From the sequence record MT129652.1: DNA of 64,000 nt; one strand, written 5' to 3'. The notes under the pieces are model-generated. The model searched no databases. It saw only the letters and a program-made list of their open reading frames with translations, and was not told the origin of the DNA. Within the stretch, counting starts at the first letter, position 1; every line of letters starts with the position of its first letter. This document shows positions 281 to 64,000 of the stretch, piece after piece. The DNA comes from Escherichia phage MN01. A program made the position numbers and the translations under genes.

Positions 281-478
281 ATGTCTCGTGAATTAGATTG
301 TGCAATCCGTACTGCCGCAGCAGCTATTGAAAACGTTATCCAGATTTGCAAAGAAGAACGCGAAGAAGCTGATATCTATATCGATGGTGTTCGTGACCTA
401 GACCGACATATTACGCTTTATAATGGTTGTATTACTATTAGTGGTACCTCTTGGGTGTCCTCCTCTTACGAATGCTAA
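281..478 (+). CDS. Hypothetical small protein, W-x-SS-x-C C-terminal family
   Basis: ATG at 281 with AAGGAA 5 nt upstream; ends SWVSSSYEC; the C-terminus-plus-SD DNA block is repeated at 449-490 and 677-718. Confidence 0.55.
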   Translation: MSRELDCAIRTAAAAIENVIQICKEEREEADIYIDGVRDLDRHITLYNGCITISGTSWVSSSYEC

Positions 479-487
479 GGAAATAAA

Positions 488-706
488 ATGACTACTAAAA
501 CTGTTAAAGAAATCGAAGACCAAATCCGTGCACTAATCTGTGAAGGTCTGACTGCGGCGGATGAAACCGGCGAACACTTCCGCGCCGGTGGCGAAGAATA
601 TATTCCAGCTTCTAGCCCGGAATATGACGATTATGAATGGGTTCGTGATGAATATTGTATTCCAGAAGGTGAAGGTTTCTGGTTTAACTCCTCTATGTCT
701 TGCTAA
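488..706 (+). CDS. Hypothetical small acidic protein, W-x-SS-x-C C-terminal family
   Basis: ORF track 72 aa; ends FWFNSSMSC; SD AAGGAAA upstream. Confidence 0.55.
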   Translation: MTTKTVKEIEDQIRALICEGLTAADETGEHFRAGGEEYIPASSPEYDDYEWVRDEYCIPEGEGFWFNSSMSC

Positions 707-715
707 GGTGATAAA

Positions 716-949
716 ATGACTACTACTGTTGAACATGCTGAATTAGAAAAAGCTGCCCTTGAACTGGCCGCGCTGTATAAGAAAGTAAAAGATATGGCTT
801 TTGCTCAAGATTTCGGTGTCGAGCTTGATGATTATGACGGCGAAGTCCGTCTTGAAGACTGGTTGAACAGCTCTTGTTATGGTGAAGAAGCTGGGCGTAC
901 CTTCGTTGCTCGTGCCGATGGTAAAATCTGGTACCCAAGTTCATGTTAA
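716..949 (+). CDS. Hypothetical small protein, W-x-SS-x-C C-terminal family
   Basis: ORF track 77 aa; internal DWLNSSC and terminal IWYPSSC motifs. Confidence 0.55.
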   Translation: MTTTVEHAELEKAALELAALYKKVKDMAFAQDFGVELDDYDGEVRLEDWLNSSCYGEEAGRTFVARADGKIWYPSSC

Positions 950-1170
950 AATTAAAGAAAAGATATATTCGTAAAATAAATGGTCTTCGTGATTACGCCA
1001 AAGGTTGGCCGTTAAGTATTATTATGGCTGATAGACATCCACGTTACAATACCGAGTTGACTTATTACAAAAAGTATGATTCGTATTGTCGGTCTAAAGC
1101 GGGTCGTTTAGATGGTTCCTATGAAGAATATTTCGGTAAAAAACCTACTCGTATTTCGTTAGGAAAATAA
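943..1170 (+). CDS. Hypothetical basic protein
   Basis: 75 aa ORF overlapping previous stop; lysine/arginine rich; no recognisable motif. Confidence 0.3.
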   Translation: MLKLKKRYIRKINGLRDYAKGWPLSIIMADRHPRYNTELTYYKKYDSYCRSKAGRLDGSYEEYFGKKPTRISLGK

Positions 1171-1273
1171 TTTAATCACAAGGATGTGATAGGAGGACTT
1201 ATGCGCAGAAATTTAGTGTACAAGCTCAAAGAAACGTAGTATCATTATCTTGTCAACTAATGAGGAAACCATT

Positions 1274-1504
1274 ATGTGGTATTATGCCCCAATGGCTGAT
1301 GAGCCTGTAAAAATTAGCCGTGCTAAGTTTACAAAGATTTACGGTCTCGTTTATAAAAAGTCTGATTACGGTGTGCGTTTTGAAGATGCACACTGTATCA
1401 ACGACCCTTATAATGAAGACCTCTATGGCAAATTGGTTCCTATCGTTAAGGGGTCCGCCTCTGAGATGATAGATGAATCTAATATATCTGCTGCTGAAAT
1501 TTAA
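1274..1504 (+). CDS. Hypothetical protein
   Basis: Second in-frame ATG of ORF 1250..1504 has GAGGAAA SD; promoter-leader cassette (GTGTACA ... ATCATTATC) directly upstream. Confidence 0.45.
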   Translation: MWYYAPMADEPVKISRAKFTKIYGLVYKKSDYGVRFEDAHCINDPYNEDLYGKLVPIVKGSASEMIDESNISAAEI

Positions 1505-1523
1505 GTTATCTGAGGAAAATATT

Positions 1524-2483
1524 ATGATGTTAGTTATTGGTTCTCGTGCATTACATAACGCTGGCCTGATTGAAAGTCAGAAAATTGAAAACTCTGATTG
1601 GGACTTCATCGCTGACCAAGGTTCCTGGAACCACTTTAAAGCACGTATGTTCGGTGCTCATGTTCCTGTGGATAACCCTGATGTCCAAGCTTTTAAATGT
1701 ATGTACAATGGCAAAGAAACTTATTTTGAAGCTTATATTGTCCGTGCCCTGACCAACGTACGAGAAATTACTGGTGAGCTTCAAGACGAAGATTTCACCT
1801 CAAGTTATCGTCTCTTGAAATACGCTGAAAATCATATTAAGAAAGACCGTCTTACAGGTTTCTATTGGGCAACTCCTGATATTTGTCTGGCAATTAAACT
1901 GTCTCATCGTTACCTGAAGAACAATCCATTCTTCCTGAAGACCATGAGCCATATTAATTACCTTCGTAATAAGGGTGTTGTTCTTAATGATGAACTGCAG
2001 AAAATCATGCTGCAACGGCAGGCAGAAACACTGTCATACAGCCACCCTAAACTAGACGTGGGCAAGAAAACTTTCTTTAATGATACAATCTATACCCTTG
2101 ACCATGACTCCATCCACGAGGCCGTGGCGCTTGCTGATAAGCCTGCATATAAGTTCTATATGAAGGATGATTCAGAAGTCATGACCTCGCGTGAAAAATT
2201 TGAAGCACTCCCTGATGTTATTAAACTGGCAGGTGTTTATGAAGAAGCATGTGTACTTGCTCTGGAGCGTTCGCAGGTTCCCAATGAGTTTAATATCTCT
2301 CCATCCGTGAGCTTCCATATTGCTCTGGAAAAAGTCTGCACCTCCATTACTTCTGGATGGTTCCGTGAGTATGCCTGGGAACATTACCAGGAAGTGGTTA
2401 ATATGTACAACACCCTGGGTCGCGAAGACTATGTTAAACGTTTCAAGGCTAACCAACATTTAATTCGTCCTTTCACAAAATAA
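1524..2483 (+). CDS. Hypothetical protein (319 aa)
   Basis: Internal ATG at 1524 preceded by GAGGAAAAT SD; long open frame typical of phage coding density. Confidence 0.6.
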   Translation: MMLVIGSRALHNAGLIESQKIENSDWDFIADQGSWNHFKARMFGAHVPVDNPDVQAFKCMYNGKETYFEAYIVRALTNVREITGELQDEDFTSSYRLLKYAENHIKKDRLTGFYWATPDICLAIKLSHRYLKNNPFFLKTMSHINYLRNKGVVLNDELQKIMLQRQAETLSYSHPKLDVGKKTFFNDTIYTLDHDSIHEAVALADKPAYKFYMKDDSEVMTSREKFEALPDVIKLAGVYEEACVLALERSQVPNEFNISPSVSFHIALEKVCTSITSGWFREYAWEHYQEVVNMYNTLGREDYVKRFKANQHLIRPFTK

Positions 2484-2542
2484 GTGTGTACATCCAAGTG
2501 GGACTATGACACAATGGTCCCACAATCAATGAGGAAAATATT

Positions 2543-3229
2543 ATGAACGGTCCAAAAACTTTTAATTCTCAAGCTCATGCAGTAGGCAGTTTCGCTGGTA
2601 AAATTTCTAATGATAAAATCAAAAACGAAACTATGTTCTTTAACAGCTCATTGGCTTTCGCTTTTGACAATGGTGGCCCTATTACTCGTAGCTTTATCAT
2701 GAGTCTGCCGGATGATTGGAACACTGACCAGGTTGTATTTGATTCTCGGGTTCATATGCTTATGCCTGGTTGGTATCCTGCTATCCCAGGTTATCACCAT
2801 GATGATGTACCACGCCCGGATATTCCGGTTGGTCAACACTTTATTACTGCAGGGCAACCTGATTATGATAATCCTCGTTACCATTCTGAACATATTCTTG
2901 GTCTTGTTAACGCTGATGTGTGTCCTACTTATTTTGCAACCGGAACTGCGCAATTTAGTCAGATTCCTGAAGGCGAACTTATCTATCGCCAGTGGCATAA
3001 AGAAGTTCTGGAAAAAATTGAGTCCAATGAATTAACCAAGTGGGATGCTCCTGACCGCACGTTGCTCCAGTTTGATTGGCAGACATGGCATACAGGTTCT
3101 CGCGCAGTAAGTAATGGTTGGCGCTGGTTTGGTCGTGTGTCTCGTAATACTGACCGTGTTAAAAAGATTACAAATGAAATCCGCGTCAATGCTCAAGTAT
3201 ATCTGGAATTCCCTATGGAGGGCTGGTAA
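2543..3229 (+). CDS. Hypothetical protein, possible 2OG-Fe(II) oxygenase/cupin-like
   Basis: 228 aa; His/Asp cluster GYHHDD followed later by WHTGSR...RVSR, resembling an HxD...H...R triad; promoter-leader with inverted repeat upstream. Confidence 0.55.
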   Translation: MNGPKTFNSQAHAVGSFAGKISNDKIKNETMFFNSSLAFAFDNGGPITRSFIMSLPDDWNTDQVVFDSRVHMLMPGWYPAIPGYHHDDVPRPDIPVGQHFITAGQPDYDNPRYHSEHILGLVNADVCPTYFATGTAQFSQIPEGELIYRQWHKEVLEKIESNELTKWDAPDRTLLQFDWQTWHTGSRAVSNGWRWFGRVSRNTDRVKKITNEIRVNAQVYLEFPMEGW

Positions 3230-3816
3230 TGGCCCTTTATGAACCCGGCTGCATGGGTGTTGATGTAAACTTCATCCGCCGGGCAGAAAATACAGGTATA
3301 ATTGTATCAAGAGACGAATTTATGATTACCAAAAAATATTGGGCGAACCTTGATGATGGTGATGAAGGAATCAAGGTGGAAAATGTTGATTGGTCGCGAT
3401 GCAATCGTCATGTGAAAGAGCTTTTAATTAAGGAATATAAAATGGGATACATCATTAATGGGCATCAACCAGAACCGCTCAAAGAACAGACACCCGACCC
3501 ATTAATTTCTTATAGCAAGAAATATGGATTTCGTACCTGGAGTGATGAATTTGATAAGTTGATTTGTTCCAGGTTTTATGCCTGGGCTGGAATCTTATTT
3601 TTACCATTCCTGTGGTTTTTCTTGACAGGCAAAAATGAAGCACCCGTAGCTGTAATGGGCGCGTGCTTTTCTACTGCTCTTGCTGGGCTTATTGCATCAT
3701 TTTTATGGACTATGGTTATTGAAGTACCTTTTCGTATTTCTAAAGTTAAAAAGGTATATGACGATATCACTAAGAAAAATACATTGAACTCCTTTATTGA
3801 GGAATGCCGTAAATGA
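3229..3816 (+). CDS. Hypothetical membrane protein
   Basis: 195 aa; TAATG overlap with upstream stop; C-terminal hydrophobic helices (WAGILFLPFLWFFL, ALAGLIASFLWTMVI). Confidence 0.55.
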   Translation: MALYEPGCMGVDVNFIRRAENTGIIVSRDEFMITKKYWANLDDGDEGIKVENVDWSRCNRHVKELLIKEYKMGYIINGHQPEPLKEQTPDPLISYSKKYGFRTWSDEFDKLICSRFYAWAGILFLPFLWFFLTGKNEAPVAVMGACFSTALAGLIASFLWTMVIEVPFRISKVKKVYDDITKKNTLNSFIEECRK

Positions 3817-4049
3817 GTATTGCAATTTATATTAAATCCGAGTCATGTGATTCTTATCTGTATTCCTATGACACTGGAACACCAGAAGAGAAAATCAAAG
3901 ATGATTTAGAAACTGATTTAGATATGTTCCGCCCGATTTCTGAATACAGAATTCAAACTTCTGATAGTGAATCTCCTTCATTGGAAAACAGACTTGAATT
4001 TTTAATGAGTGATATTTTTAACCAATCATGGAAACGTGACGATGAGTAA
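3813..4049 (+). CDS. Hypothetical acidic protein
   Basis: 78 aa; ATGA start/stop overlap with upstream gene. Confidence 0.45.
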   Translation: MSIAIYIKSESCDSYLYSYDTGTPEEKIKDDLETDLDMFRPISEYRIQTSDSESPSLENRLEFLMSDIFNQSWKRDDE

Positions 4050-4500
4050 GAAAAACAAGGTGAAAGAATTATCTGCTGGCATTATTTTCATGACTGAAGA
4101 TAAAGAGTTATTCATGGGTCGTGTGACTGGTTCTCGTAAACCAGGTATGCCTGCACACAAATGGGACATCCCTAAAGGTCATGTTGAAGCTGGTGAATCC
4201 CCGATTGAAGCGGCTATCCGTGAAACCGAAGAAGAAACCGGGTTTACTCAATACGACCCGGCATTCTTAAAGGACCTGGGCGAATTCCGTTATTCAGATA
4301 ACAAAAATCTTCACCTGTTTTTGTACACGGTTCCGGTCGAGCATGAGCAGTTCAGACATAGTAAATGCTCTGCCTATCATACCTTCCCGGATGGTAGTTC
4401 GATTCCAGAGTTCGATGCATTTGCTCTGATTAAACCAAGTCAATGGCAGTATGTGATGGGCAAATCGATGTACAAGGTACTGACTCAAATTTTCGGATAA
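4042..4500 (+). CDS. nudE: Nudix hydrolase NudE (e.1)
   Basis: Nudix box GHVEAGESPIEAAIRETEEETGF; position immediately upstream of lysozyme as in T4. Confidence 0.8.
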   Translation: MSKKNKVKELSAGIIFMTEDKELFMGRVTGSRKPGMPAHKWDIPKGHVEAGESPIEAAIRETEEETGFTQYDPAFLKDLGEFRYSDNKNLHLFLYTVPVEHEQFRHSKCSAYHTFPDGSSIPEFDAFALIKPSQWQYVMGKSMYKVLTQIFG

Positions 4501-4526
4501 TAAATACCCCTATATAAGGGGGTATT
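4497..4526 (+). promoter_or_regulatory. Late-promoter-like TAATAAATA plus hairpin sequestering the lysozyme SD
   Basis: AATACCCC (4503-4510) pairs with GGGGTATT (4519-4526); SD AGGGGG sits in the 3-prime arm; ATG at 4527. Confidence 0.5.
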
Positions 4527-5018
4527 ATGAATATATTCGAAATGTTACGCATAGATGAAGGTTGTAAGTTGGATTTGTATAAAGATACTGAAGGCTATTG
4601 GACCATTGGTATCGGGCAACTGATAACTAAGAACCCATCAAAAGATGTTGCTCGTGCCGAGCTCGACAAACTCATGGGTCGCGTCTGTAATGGTCGCATA
4701 ACCCAGCACGAAGCTGAAACATTGTTTAACCGTTCGGTCGAAAAAGCTAAAGCCGGAATCTTGAGACACCCTGTCTTAAAACCTGTTTATGATGTGCTAG
4801 ATGAAGTTCGTCGTTGTGCACTCATTAATATGGTATTCCAGATGGGTGTTGCTGGTGTTGCTGGTTTTCCTAAGGGTATGCGACTTCTGAAGTCTAAATC
4901 ATGGGAAGCAGCTGCTAAGGAACTGGCGGACTCAAGATGGTATAAAGTCCAGACTCCGAACCGAGCCAAACGAGTTATAGAAACGTTCCGTACTGGAACT
5001 TTTAGCGCATACAAATAA
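4527..5018 (+). CDS. e: Endolysin (T4 lysozyme e, muramidase)
   Basis: N-terminus [12 protein letters not shown]...[13 protein letters not shown] and [12 protein letters not shown]...PNRAKRVI closely match T4 lysozyme. Confidence 0.95.
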
Positions 5019-59685: not shown

Positions 59686-59688
59686 CCA

Positions 59689-59711
59689 AAAGGACCTTCG
59701 GGTCCTTTTTT
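59689..59711 (+). terminator. Rho-independent terminator
   Basis: GGACC-TTCG-GGTCC + TTTTTT. Confidence 0.65.
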
Positions 59712-62473: not shown

Positions 62474-63451
62474 ATGTTTAATATCAAATGTATGTCTAAA
62501 GCCGAACAAGCTGATGTGGTCCAGATGTATTCAACGGGCAATTATACCCAGCCTGAATTGGCAGAATATTTTGCTGTGTCCGTTGACACCATTCGCCGCG
62601 TTTTGAAAAATGATAAAGAATCAAAATTAGCTAGAACCATTTCCGCATCACTGAAAGCAGCTGTTGGTGTGGCGATTAATGCTCCGGTGACAGTAACGGT
62701 TGAAGTCCCGGTTGCTGATACAATCGGCGGTAGCCGCCCGGAAATCGTATGGAACGCATCAAGCAAATTCGTTTCCATCACCGAAGGCCGCACGGTCTGG
62801 AACGCAACAAAAGACCATAAACACTTTGATGATATTATTCAGGCATTGATTGAATTCCGGTATGAAGATGCTATCGAGTTTATCTCTATCAAAGCTGCAG
62901 TGCAAAAATATGTGAAAGGTGATGTGCGTATTGAAGGTGGTAGCCTGTTCTATCAGGGAATTGAACTGCGCTCTGGTTTGGTTACTCGTATCATCGATTC
63001 AATGCAAAATGGCGAAGACTTTGAATTCTATCTGCCATTCCTTGAAAATCTCCTTGAGAACCCGAGTGAGAAAGCTGTACAGCGTTTGTTTGACTTCTTG
63101 GTTGCTAACGATATCGAAATCACCGAAGATGGCCATTTCATCGCCTGGAAAATGGTTCGTTCAACCTACAAAGATTGCCACTCAAATACATTCGACAACA
63201 GCCCTGGTCAATATGTTAAAATGCCGCGCTCTCGTGTGAATGACAATGACGAACAGACCTGTTCAACTGGGCTGCACGTTTGTTCTAAAGGTTATATCGG
63301 AAGTGGCTTTGGTCATGGTGATGGGCGCATCGTATCCTGTAAAGTTCACCCGCGCGATGTTGTAAGCATCCCGGTGGATTATTCCGATAGTAAGATGAGG
63401 GTTTGCGGTTACCTGGTTCTTGAAGATGTGACCGAACGTTTCAATGATTAA
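62474..63451 (+). CDS. rIIB: rIIB protein
   Basis: 325 aa directly downstream of rIIA with N-terminal helix-turn-helix-like segment (ELAEYFAVSVDTIRRVL); synteny. Confidence 0.7.
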   Translation: MFNIKCMSKAEQADVVQMYSTGNYTQPELAEYFAVSVDTIRRVLKNDKESKLARTISASLKAAVGVAINAPVTVTVEVPVADTIGGSRPEIVWNASSKFVSITEGRTVWNATKDHKHFDDIIQALIEFRYEDAIEFISIKAAVQKYVKGDVRIEGGSLFYQGIELRSGLVTRIIDSMQNGEDFEFYLPFLENLLENPSEKAVQRLFDFLVANDIEITEDGHFIAWKMVRSTYKDCHSNTFDNSPGQYVKMPRSRVNDNDEQTCSTGLHVCSKGYIGSGFGHGDGRIVSCKVHPRDVVSIPVDYSDSKMRVCGYLVLEDVTERFND

Positions 63452-63935
63452 ACAAACAATTGCTAAAGATGGCTCGGCTCGTGGTATTGTCCACGGGCTA
63501 GGTCACACGCCTGAATACATTGTATGGATTGGCATGAAAGCTCGGTGTTGCAATCCAACACATATTAGTTATTCTCGATATGGCGGTCGGGGTATCACTG
63601 TTTGCGATGAATGGCTGCATGATTTTGAAAGATTTTATACAGATATGGGGCCACGACCCACTGACAAACATCAACTTGACCGAACAGATAACGATAAAGG
63701 GTACTCTCCCGATAACTGCAGATGGGTTAGTCCAGGCGAGAATGCTTTAAATAAGCGCCCGTATAATAACAACAAGTCTGGATTTAAAGGAGTCTCGTTT
63801 GATAAACGAGCTTTGAATAAACCATGGCGAGCCACTATTATGCGAAATAAAAAACAAATTCAAGTCGGAGCTTTTGCAACTCCAGAAGAAGCAAATGAAG
63901 CTCGATTAAAATATATGGAAGAACACAATGTCTAA
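63444..63935 (+). CDS. HNH endonuclease domain protein with C-terminal AP2-like DNA-binding domain
   Basis: YSPDNCRWVSPGENALNK (HNH_3-like) followed by NKSGFKGVSFDKRALNKPWRA...GAFATPEEANEA (AP2-like); 163 aa. Confidence 0.6.
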   Translation: MIKQTIAKDGSARGIVHGLGHTPEYIVWIGMKARCCNPTHISYSRYGGRGITVCDEWLHDFERFYTDMGPRPTDKHQLDRTDNDKGYSPDNCRWVSPGENALNKRPYNNNKSGFKGVSFDKRALNKPWRATIMRNKKQIQVGAFATPEEANEARLKYMEEHNV

Positions 63936-64000
63936 AGAAATGTTAGGTTTCCAAGCACGTGTAGTTGAAGAATATGACCAGCTGGTTTTGAAAATCAATG
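63928..64000 (+). CDS. Partial CDS (5-prime end), hypothetical
   Basis: ATG overlapping the upstream stop; open to the window edge (MSKEMLGFQARVVEEYDQLVLKIN...). Confidence 0.35.
   Translation, partial: MSKEMLGFQARVVEEYDQLVLKIN

Follow-up and report, generated by a model that had tools for sequence, protein, structure and literature searches.

Introduction

The free-standing homing endonuclease genes (HEGs) of phage T4, whose products include the Mob proteins, move by cleavage, recombinational repair and co-conversion of their flanks, and the phage homing enzymes I-HmuI, I-TwoI and I-BasI are monomeric His-Me proteins with one active site that nick one strand. Here we analyzed a 163-aa open reading frame (ORF) located immediately after rIIB in Escherichia phage MN01 (sequence record MT129652.1), using a stretch of 64,000 nucleotides that we call the window; the ORF is referred to below as the HEG. 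Its product is a candidate member of the same set of phage His-Me homing enzymes, but those proteins use canonical His general bases and carry NUMOD or helix-turn-helix (HTH) modules rather than an AP2 domain. Classical HNH(HNN)-AP2 homing endonucleases were reportedly described by Magnani et al. in 2004. Like the window gene, the classical enzymes join an N-terminal His-Me nuclease to AP2 and are free-standing, sporadic and degeneration-prone in T4-related phages; they keep an Asp-His dyad and match Pfam HNH_3, whereas the window protein has Asp-Arg and lacks that match. HNH-AP2 genes are a recognised category in the T4-related phages RB49, RB43, RB16 and JSE (Petrov et al. 2010, PMC2993671; PMC1524935), and classical HNH-AP2 homing endonucleases have also been found in Xanthomonas phages (PMC2248197).

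The "IPA-HNH" HEGs of Vibrio phage ICP1 (gp59, gp115/116 and gp209) encode an HNH-like domain unseen by Pfam HNH_3 plus a C-terminal AP2 domain; according to the same study T4 has no IPA-HNH genes, and the active site of these proteins is not discussed there (Barth et al. 2023, PMC10448857). As in the window gene, a divergent N-terminal HNH-like domain is combined with a C-terminal AP2 domain in a free-standing gene beside phage genes. BLASTP aligned the window protein to gp59 at 27% identity (E 3e-6, 115 columns, aa 27-132), and gp59 is also without the catalytic His, having a Lys at that position (QLDK); gp115 alone gave no match to the window protein. The HNH-like domain undetected by Pfam HNH_3, the AP2 domain and the gp59 homology indicate that the HEG protein belongs to the IPA-HNH / HNH-AP2 class of HEGs. 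It would form a different subfamily from gp59, which is 272 aa long and in which the YGGRGI motif of the window protein is not conserved. Unlike the ICP1 genes, the window gene is found in a T4-like phage, at the rIIB-denB.1 junction.

Two other systems bear on how such a protein might act. PacI is an HNH enzyme without the His, in which a Tyr of the inter-strand loop substitutes, with Asp and Asn as the metal ligands (PMC5714182, PMC4081073). Unlike the window protein, it is a restriction enzyme and a homodimer, has two Cys4 zinc sites and lacks an AP2 domain. CasPRs (CapR plus AP2) have been shown experimentally to be phage transcriptional silencers with an anti-CRISPR role (bioRxiv 10.64898/2026.02.23.707548). 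They are, like the window protein, phage AP2-domain proteins derived from homing-endonuclease DNA-binding modules, and longer homologs of the window protein share the CasPR-type CxCxC...CGC zinc finger at their N-terminus. However, CasPRs bind without cutting and originate from acr loci of Bacillota prophages, and the window protein, which is without a CapR finger, has a His-Me domain that, judging from the residue numbers in the preprint, is apparently absent in CasPRIB1.

Results

Our results indicate that the gene is probably a free-standing HEG, of the atypical HNH-AP2 ("IPA-HNH") class, and that it entered a Gaprivervirus-like T4 relative at the junction of rIIB and denB.1. The locus is organised as follows:

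62474..63451, + strand: rIIB, the left flanking gene (PHROG 609, 7.8e-103)
63383..63451, + strand: rIIB 3' end, HEG-linked haplotype with 11 fixed differences and a two-codon extension (alignments)
63444..63935, + strand: HNH-AP2 ORF (HEG), 163 aa, ATG start (ORF list)
63444..63451, + strand: overlap of the HEG start and the rIIB stop, ATGATTAA (sequence)
63452..63939, + strand: inserted segment, 488 bp relative to HEG-minus relatives, in place of a 29-bp spacer with the GGGGCTTCGGCCCC hairpin and the denB.1 Shine-Dalgarno sequence (junction alignments)
63928..63935, + strand: overlap of the HEG stop and the upstream denB.1 start, ATGTCTAA (sequence and junction alignments)
63940..64000, + strand: 5' part of denB.1, the right flank, running past the window end (comparison with relatives, no HEG-linked differences)

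The window region is 92-97% identical to phages of the genus Gaprivervirus (VR7, SP18, RZ, TH54 and others; Tevenvirinae). Rather than being universally conserved at this site, the HEG is sporadic: it was present in TH54, DCP80, VR7 and phage 212, that is, in 4 of 27 distinct related Gaprivervirus genomes, and absent from T4, where rIIB is followed by a 27-nt spacer and denB.1. SP18, P8 and VR20 are among the HEG-minus phages. Junction alignments showed that in the HEG-minus genomes a 33-nt spacer, which contains the GGGGCTTCGGCCCC hairpin and a GAGG Shine-Dalgarno sequence, separates the rIIB stop from denB.1. The T4 empty site is laid out alike, GGCTTCGGCC being followed by TAAGGA. Because T4 and the HEG-minus Gapriverviruses share this arrangement of hairpin and Shine-Dalgarno sequence, the alignments indicate that the empty state is ancestral and the HEG an insertion with precise boundaries. 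The copy in phage 212 contains a 2-bp insertion (GGTCGTGTGG vs GGTC--GGGG) at about 2150-2175 of its locus that breaks the frame, reflecting either a decaying gene or a sequencing error; the phage 212 record annotates only a 3' HEG fragment. As a separate observation, C(UUCG)G tetraloop hairpins are found at operon boundaries, with AAAAGGACCTTCGGGTCCTTTT plus a T-run lying upstream of the rIIA region (window 59688-59709, + strand), and the GGGGCTTCGGCCCC hairpin of the HEG-minus phages is the one lost from the window through the HEG insertion.

The nucleotide sequences of the inserted genes point to a recent spread. The HEG is identical over 489/489 nt in the window, TH54 and DCP80 and differs by 4 nt from VR7, while the rIIB genes of the first three phages are only 92-94% identical, i.e., 6-8% apart. 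Over the stretch lying 120-220 nt before the rIIB end, identity of the window to the HEG-minus phages M719, UPEC01 and PSD2001 reaches 99-100%, as against only 92-93% to HEG-plus phages. The last ~70 nt of rIIB contain 11 differences, including D->E and Q->R, that are fixed between the five HEG-plus and the nine HEG-minus genomes examined, and the HEG-plus allele has the two-codon extension. The association with the HEG is gone beyond ~120 nt upstream in rIIB, and a comparison of denB.1 revealed no HEG-linked differences downstream. We consider the tract at the rIIB end likely to be a co-converted, cleavage-resistant target region.

The same position is occupied outside the genus. The closest outside relatives (64-70% identity) are those of Morganella phage MP1 and four metagenomic proteins on five contigs, all immediately 3' of rIIB in other T4-like lineages, with rIIB proteins of 313-433 aa. 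Their HEGs start within or overlapping the last rIIB codons, where a conserved ...(E/D)DVT..F motif is encoded (GAAGATGTTAC); denB.1 and/or denB come next. On these comparisons the clade appears tied to the rIIB 3' site in six lineages, the window's own and five other T4-like ones. On one metagenomic T4-like contig (4500-4721), the gene that follows the HEG at the denB.1 position has a precomputed match to Pfam PF21825 'Sequestin', which hints at the nature of the genes at that position.

The reading frames at both junctions are interlocked. A sequence-only reading of the window had placed the ORF right after rIIB, overlapping its stop and co-transcribed with the rII genes, and knew of no such gene at this position in T4. 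In agreement with this, the HEG start ATG (63444-63446) and the rIIB stop TAA (63449-63451) lie within the 8-nt overlap ATGATTAA, and the T4 junction is empty as described above; co-transcription is a prediction from sequence, consistent with the stop overlap and with our search for terminator-like sites between rIIA, rIIB and the HEG, which found none. No Shine-Dalgarno sequence is present ahead of the HEG ATG, and in the search for a dedicated HEG promoter, promoter-like matches occurred only at chance level. At the other end, an in-frame ATG at 63928, which lengthens denB.1 by four codons (MLGF... to MSKE-MLGF...), overlaps the HEG stop TAA (63933-63935; ATGTCTAA). This overlap stands in place of the GAGG Shine-Dalgarno sequence of the empty site, and both denB.1 starts are annotated in the DCP80 record. 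The two overlaps, together with the missing Shine-Dalgarno sequence before the HEG ATG, suggest that the HEG is translated at a low level by coupling to rIIB and that denB.1 is coupled to the HEG, in which case the insertion would not have interrupted the operon.

The HEG protein matches PHROG 374 'HNH endonuclease' (7.9e-59), and HEG proteins 98.8-100% identical to it are encoded by VR7, TH54 and DCP80. The VR7 copy is ORF292c (98.8% aa identity to the window protein) and bears the RefSeq label "HNH endonuclease" (YP_004063973). A search for HEG paralogs elsewhere in the window found none. The overall GC content of the HEG is unremarkable (41.3% vs 40.1% for the window). Its GC content at third codon positions is 30.5%, compared with about 40-43% in rIIA and rIIB, which fits a foreign origin but is weak evidence for it.

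Next, we studied the protein, in which three regions can be delimited:

63492..63773, + strand: predicted N-terminal His-Me-finger-like domain, aa 17-110, made up of three helices and a beta-beta-alpha core
63669..63755, + strand: predicted beta-beta-alpha core, aa 76-104, with D79, R80, Y87, N91, N100 and N103 (homolog conservation and manual alignment to ICP1 gp80)
63777..63926, + strand: C-terminal AP2 DNA-binding domain, aa 112-161, made up of three strands and one helix

We identified the C-terminal half as an AP2 domain. Although the single HEG sequence scores 21.9 bits against Pfam AP2 (PF00847), below the gathering score of 33.3, a profile of 101 homologs matches the AP2 domains of WRI1 (8.3e-10), TEM1 (5.3e-6) and ERF96 (2e-4), and the AlphaFold model (pLDDT 90.6) places strands at 117-119, 128-134 and 137-144 and a helix at 147-161. 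According to the model, the N-terminal half has a His-Me (HNH-type) fold. Its nearest solved structure and top nuclease match is PacI (PDB 3m7k/3ldy), and other His-Me enzymes scored lower (DraIII 2.9, Gme HNH 2.5, Cas9 HNH 2.1, CAD 2.0); a Foldseek search of the PDB yielded weak AP2 matches only and put PacI at rank 20. None of the Pfam HNH models and no NCBIfam model detects the N-terminal domain, and Pfam HNH_3 (PF13392) gave no match to the HEG protein while the control, ICP1 gp80, scored 25.8 bits. The sequence-only reading had proposed an HNH-type domain joined to AP2 on the basis of two motifs, which are located at aa 90-100 (DNCRWVSPGEN) and aa 111-130 (KSGFKGVSF...WRA). The profile search and the model uphold that architecture. 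The label "HNH_3-like" holds in part: the motif is present and the resemblance is real, but Pfam HNH_3 misses it and the first His of the signature is an Arg.

Since a profile-profile comparison (hhalign) of the N-domain with a single HNH_3 protein, ICP1 gp80, was uninformative, we aligned the core by eye to this bona fide HNH_3 protein (VNHKDGNKLNNHVNNLEHVSHSQNQRH / LDRTDNDKGYSPDN-CRWVSPGENALN). In this alignment R80 takes the place of the catalytic His, D79 that of the preceding metal ligand, N91 that of the structural Asn, and N100/N103 those of the helix ligands. R80, Y87, N91, W94 and N103 are found in 101/101 homologs; position 79 is D in 92 and E in 7 of them, and position 100 is N or Q. 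A nearby His, H76, is kept in 64/101 only. The Arg also occurs in 311/318 further copies of the domain (98%), and a His in none. The positions of the HNH structural Asn before beta-strand 2 and of the metal-binding Asn/His of the helix are occupied by the invariant N91 and N103, and every family-invariant residue is intact in the window copy. Catalysis would probably not proceed through the canonical His, and by analogy the D79 / Y87 / N103 pattern could fit the PacI precedent. The literature examined does not discuss a family-wide Arg at the His position, the loop Tyr that is invariant alongside it, or PacI as the closest structure, and in this the finding goes beyond routine annotation.

The N-domain belongs to a very large family: counted as cluster representatives at 50% identity, it has 126,800 members with a cut-off of E<=1e-3 and 109,512 with E<=1e-10. 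It is the constant part of these proteins and is joined to varying DNA-binding modules (AP2, HTH-like and CapR-type CxCxC..CGC zinc fingers), a modular design typical of homing endonucleases. As a side observation, some members carry CapR/DUF4379-type zinc fingers or a DNA methylase fragment. One more distant homolog, from the Streptococcus prophage Javan129 (230 aa: zinc finger, N-domain and AP2), is located between two lysin coding sequences (CDS) ~1 kb apart (2510-4743) and is flanked by the two halves of a match to the group I intron model RF00028 (32.8 bits, E 3e-6, below the gathering score). Its ORF has no other nuclease domain, and a split lysin with a group I intron is a classical setting for a homing endonuclease. 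We also considered whether the Streptococcus homologs are CasPR anti-CRISPRs in acr loci and rejected this possibility, as the Javan129 copy instead lies inside the split lysin with the group I intron signal.

Discussion

A homing-endonuclease-type protein was already suggested by the sequence-only reading, and the genetics of the locus agree with it: the distribution is sporadic, the insertion precise, the gene identical in divergent backgrounds, one copy is frameshifted and one homolog has an intron-like setting. The departures from that suggestion lie in the noncanonical motif and in the nuclease activity, which for the HEG protein we infer from sequence comparison; the same holds for the target site, for cleavage there and for what each residue does. 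During mixed infections, the HEG protein would be made at a low level via translational coupling to rIIB. Its AP2 domain would bind near the rIIB stop and the hairpin of the spacer on the HEG-minus allele, and the single His-Me-type domain would nick or cut nearby. Recombinational repair from the HEG-plus genome would then copy in the HEG together with about 70 nt of the rIIB end, leaving the carrier allele, altered or deleted at the target, immune. By analogy with PacI, D79 and N103 (or N100) may hold the metal, with Y87 acting as general base or nucleophile and R80 where the His normally sits.

Several results weigh against a homing endonuclease. The canonical catalytic His (end of beta-strand 1, Asp/Asn-His dyad) is missing in every copy examined, and its proposed substitute Y87 is a Tyr in 91% of the 318 further copies and a Phe in 9%. 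Searches of PDB sequences with the whole protein, the N-domain profile and a profile of the beta-beta-alpha core gave no significant nuclease match, the full-length profile reaching I-HmuI only marginally (E 1.3); profile searches of PDB sequences detected no sequence-level relationship to PacI either. We found no demonstrated nuclease activity for any family member in the literature. Many family members have 2-4 tandem copies of the N-domain, each followed by an HTH-like module, an arrangement less expected for a catalytic domain and more usual for DNA-binding modules. Finally, an identical HEG with a short linked tract could also come from ordinary phage recombination together with selection for a useful gene.

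These points lead to the strongest alternative, anticipated as "transcription regulator" by the sequence-only reading and retained here as unlikely: a non-catalytic, sequence-specific DNA binder, i.e., a domesticated homing-endonuclease relative that regulates or silences transcription of phage, host or competitor genes and owes its spread to ordinary recombination and to its usefulness. A His-Me fold lacking the His may serve purely to bind DNA, as in SMAD MH1 (PMC5714182, PMC3384342). AP2 is a transcription-factor domain, the CapR+AP2 CasPRs are proven silencers, and both the tandem copies and the absence of a His from all copies examined agree with binding. On the other hand, the conservation of D79, Y87, N91 and N103 at the very positions that a PacI-type active site requires speaks against a binder, as does the location of a homolog without another nuclease domain inside a group-I-intron-like element. 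In all six lineages the closest clade occupies a single insertion site and overlaps the end of rIIB, and one copy is decaying, as expected in the life cycle of a homing endonuclease. The CasPR parallel is itself limited: to judge from the preprint's residue numbers, the gap between zinc finger and AP2 in CasPRIB1 seems too short for a 95-aa domain.

It is very unlikely that the gene is an inactive relic, a former homing endonuclease whose frame is kept by chance or by polar effects on denB.1 translation. The frameshift in phage 212 would fit such a relic, and the HEG is now the sole translational entry to denB.1 via the ATGTCTAA coupling, so that its deletion could be costly; however, zero substitutions in 489 nt among three divergent phages speak for very recent spread and not for old decay, the ratio of nonsynonymous to synonymous substitution rates (dN/dS) against the 64-70% identical relatives of other lineages is 0.08-0.14, and the family-invariant residues are all intact in the window copy. 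Least probable, and rejected here, is repeated deletion of an accessory gene that the rII operon had ancestrally: this would account for the patchiness and for the homologs at the same position in several T4-like genera, but T4 and the Gapriverviruses have the same empty-site architecture, a hairpin and Shine-Dalgarno spacer that deletion would not recreate, the presence of the HEG conflicts with the relatedness of the flanking sequences, and the copies are identical where their flanks are 6-8% apart.

Taken as a homing endonuclease gene, the HEG of this phage is ordinary, one more free-standing HEG in a T4-like genome and one already annotated in the VR7 RefSeq record. What goes beyond routine is the clean and recent invasion of the rII locus, with its identical insert, precise boundaries, one-sided tract of ~70 nt and decaying copy. 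The rII region is historically important, and the clade at the rIIB end offers a convenient system for homing and marker exclusion in non-T4 Tevenvirinae. We tentatively raise a broader possibility, itself doubtful: that the N-domain defines a very large family, without Pfam or NCBIfam match and with the His universally replaced by Arg, whose members either are PacI-like Tyr-dependent nucleases, possibly acting through a covalent phosphotyrosyl intermediate, or make the whole IPA-HNH class non-cutting mobile binders or silencers that spread otherwise. If the PacI-like version were true, Tyr-dependent His-Me enzymes would be a major class of homing endonucleases. Whether and how the family cuts DNA bears on the reading of tens of thousands of phage "HNH endonuclease" annotations.

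Neighboring genes

Upstream of rIIB the window contains rIIA, which matches PHROG 612 (3.6e-230). The record of phage RZ (NC_070780, 444-2673) splits rIIA into two overlapping CDS, 444..1718 and 1708..2673, pointing to either a frameshift or a sequencing error there. Beyond the window end, Gapriverviruses have one of two unrelated alleles after denB.1, either a 270-nt RB69ORF272c-like gene or a 321-nt YopX-domain gene; the two are ~50% identical in the alignment and distributed independently of the HEG. This looks like a second swapped cassette beside the HEG site.

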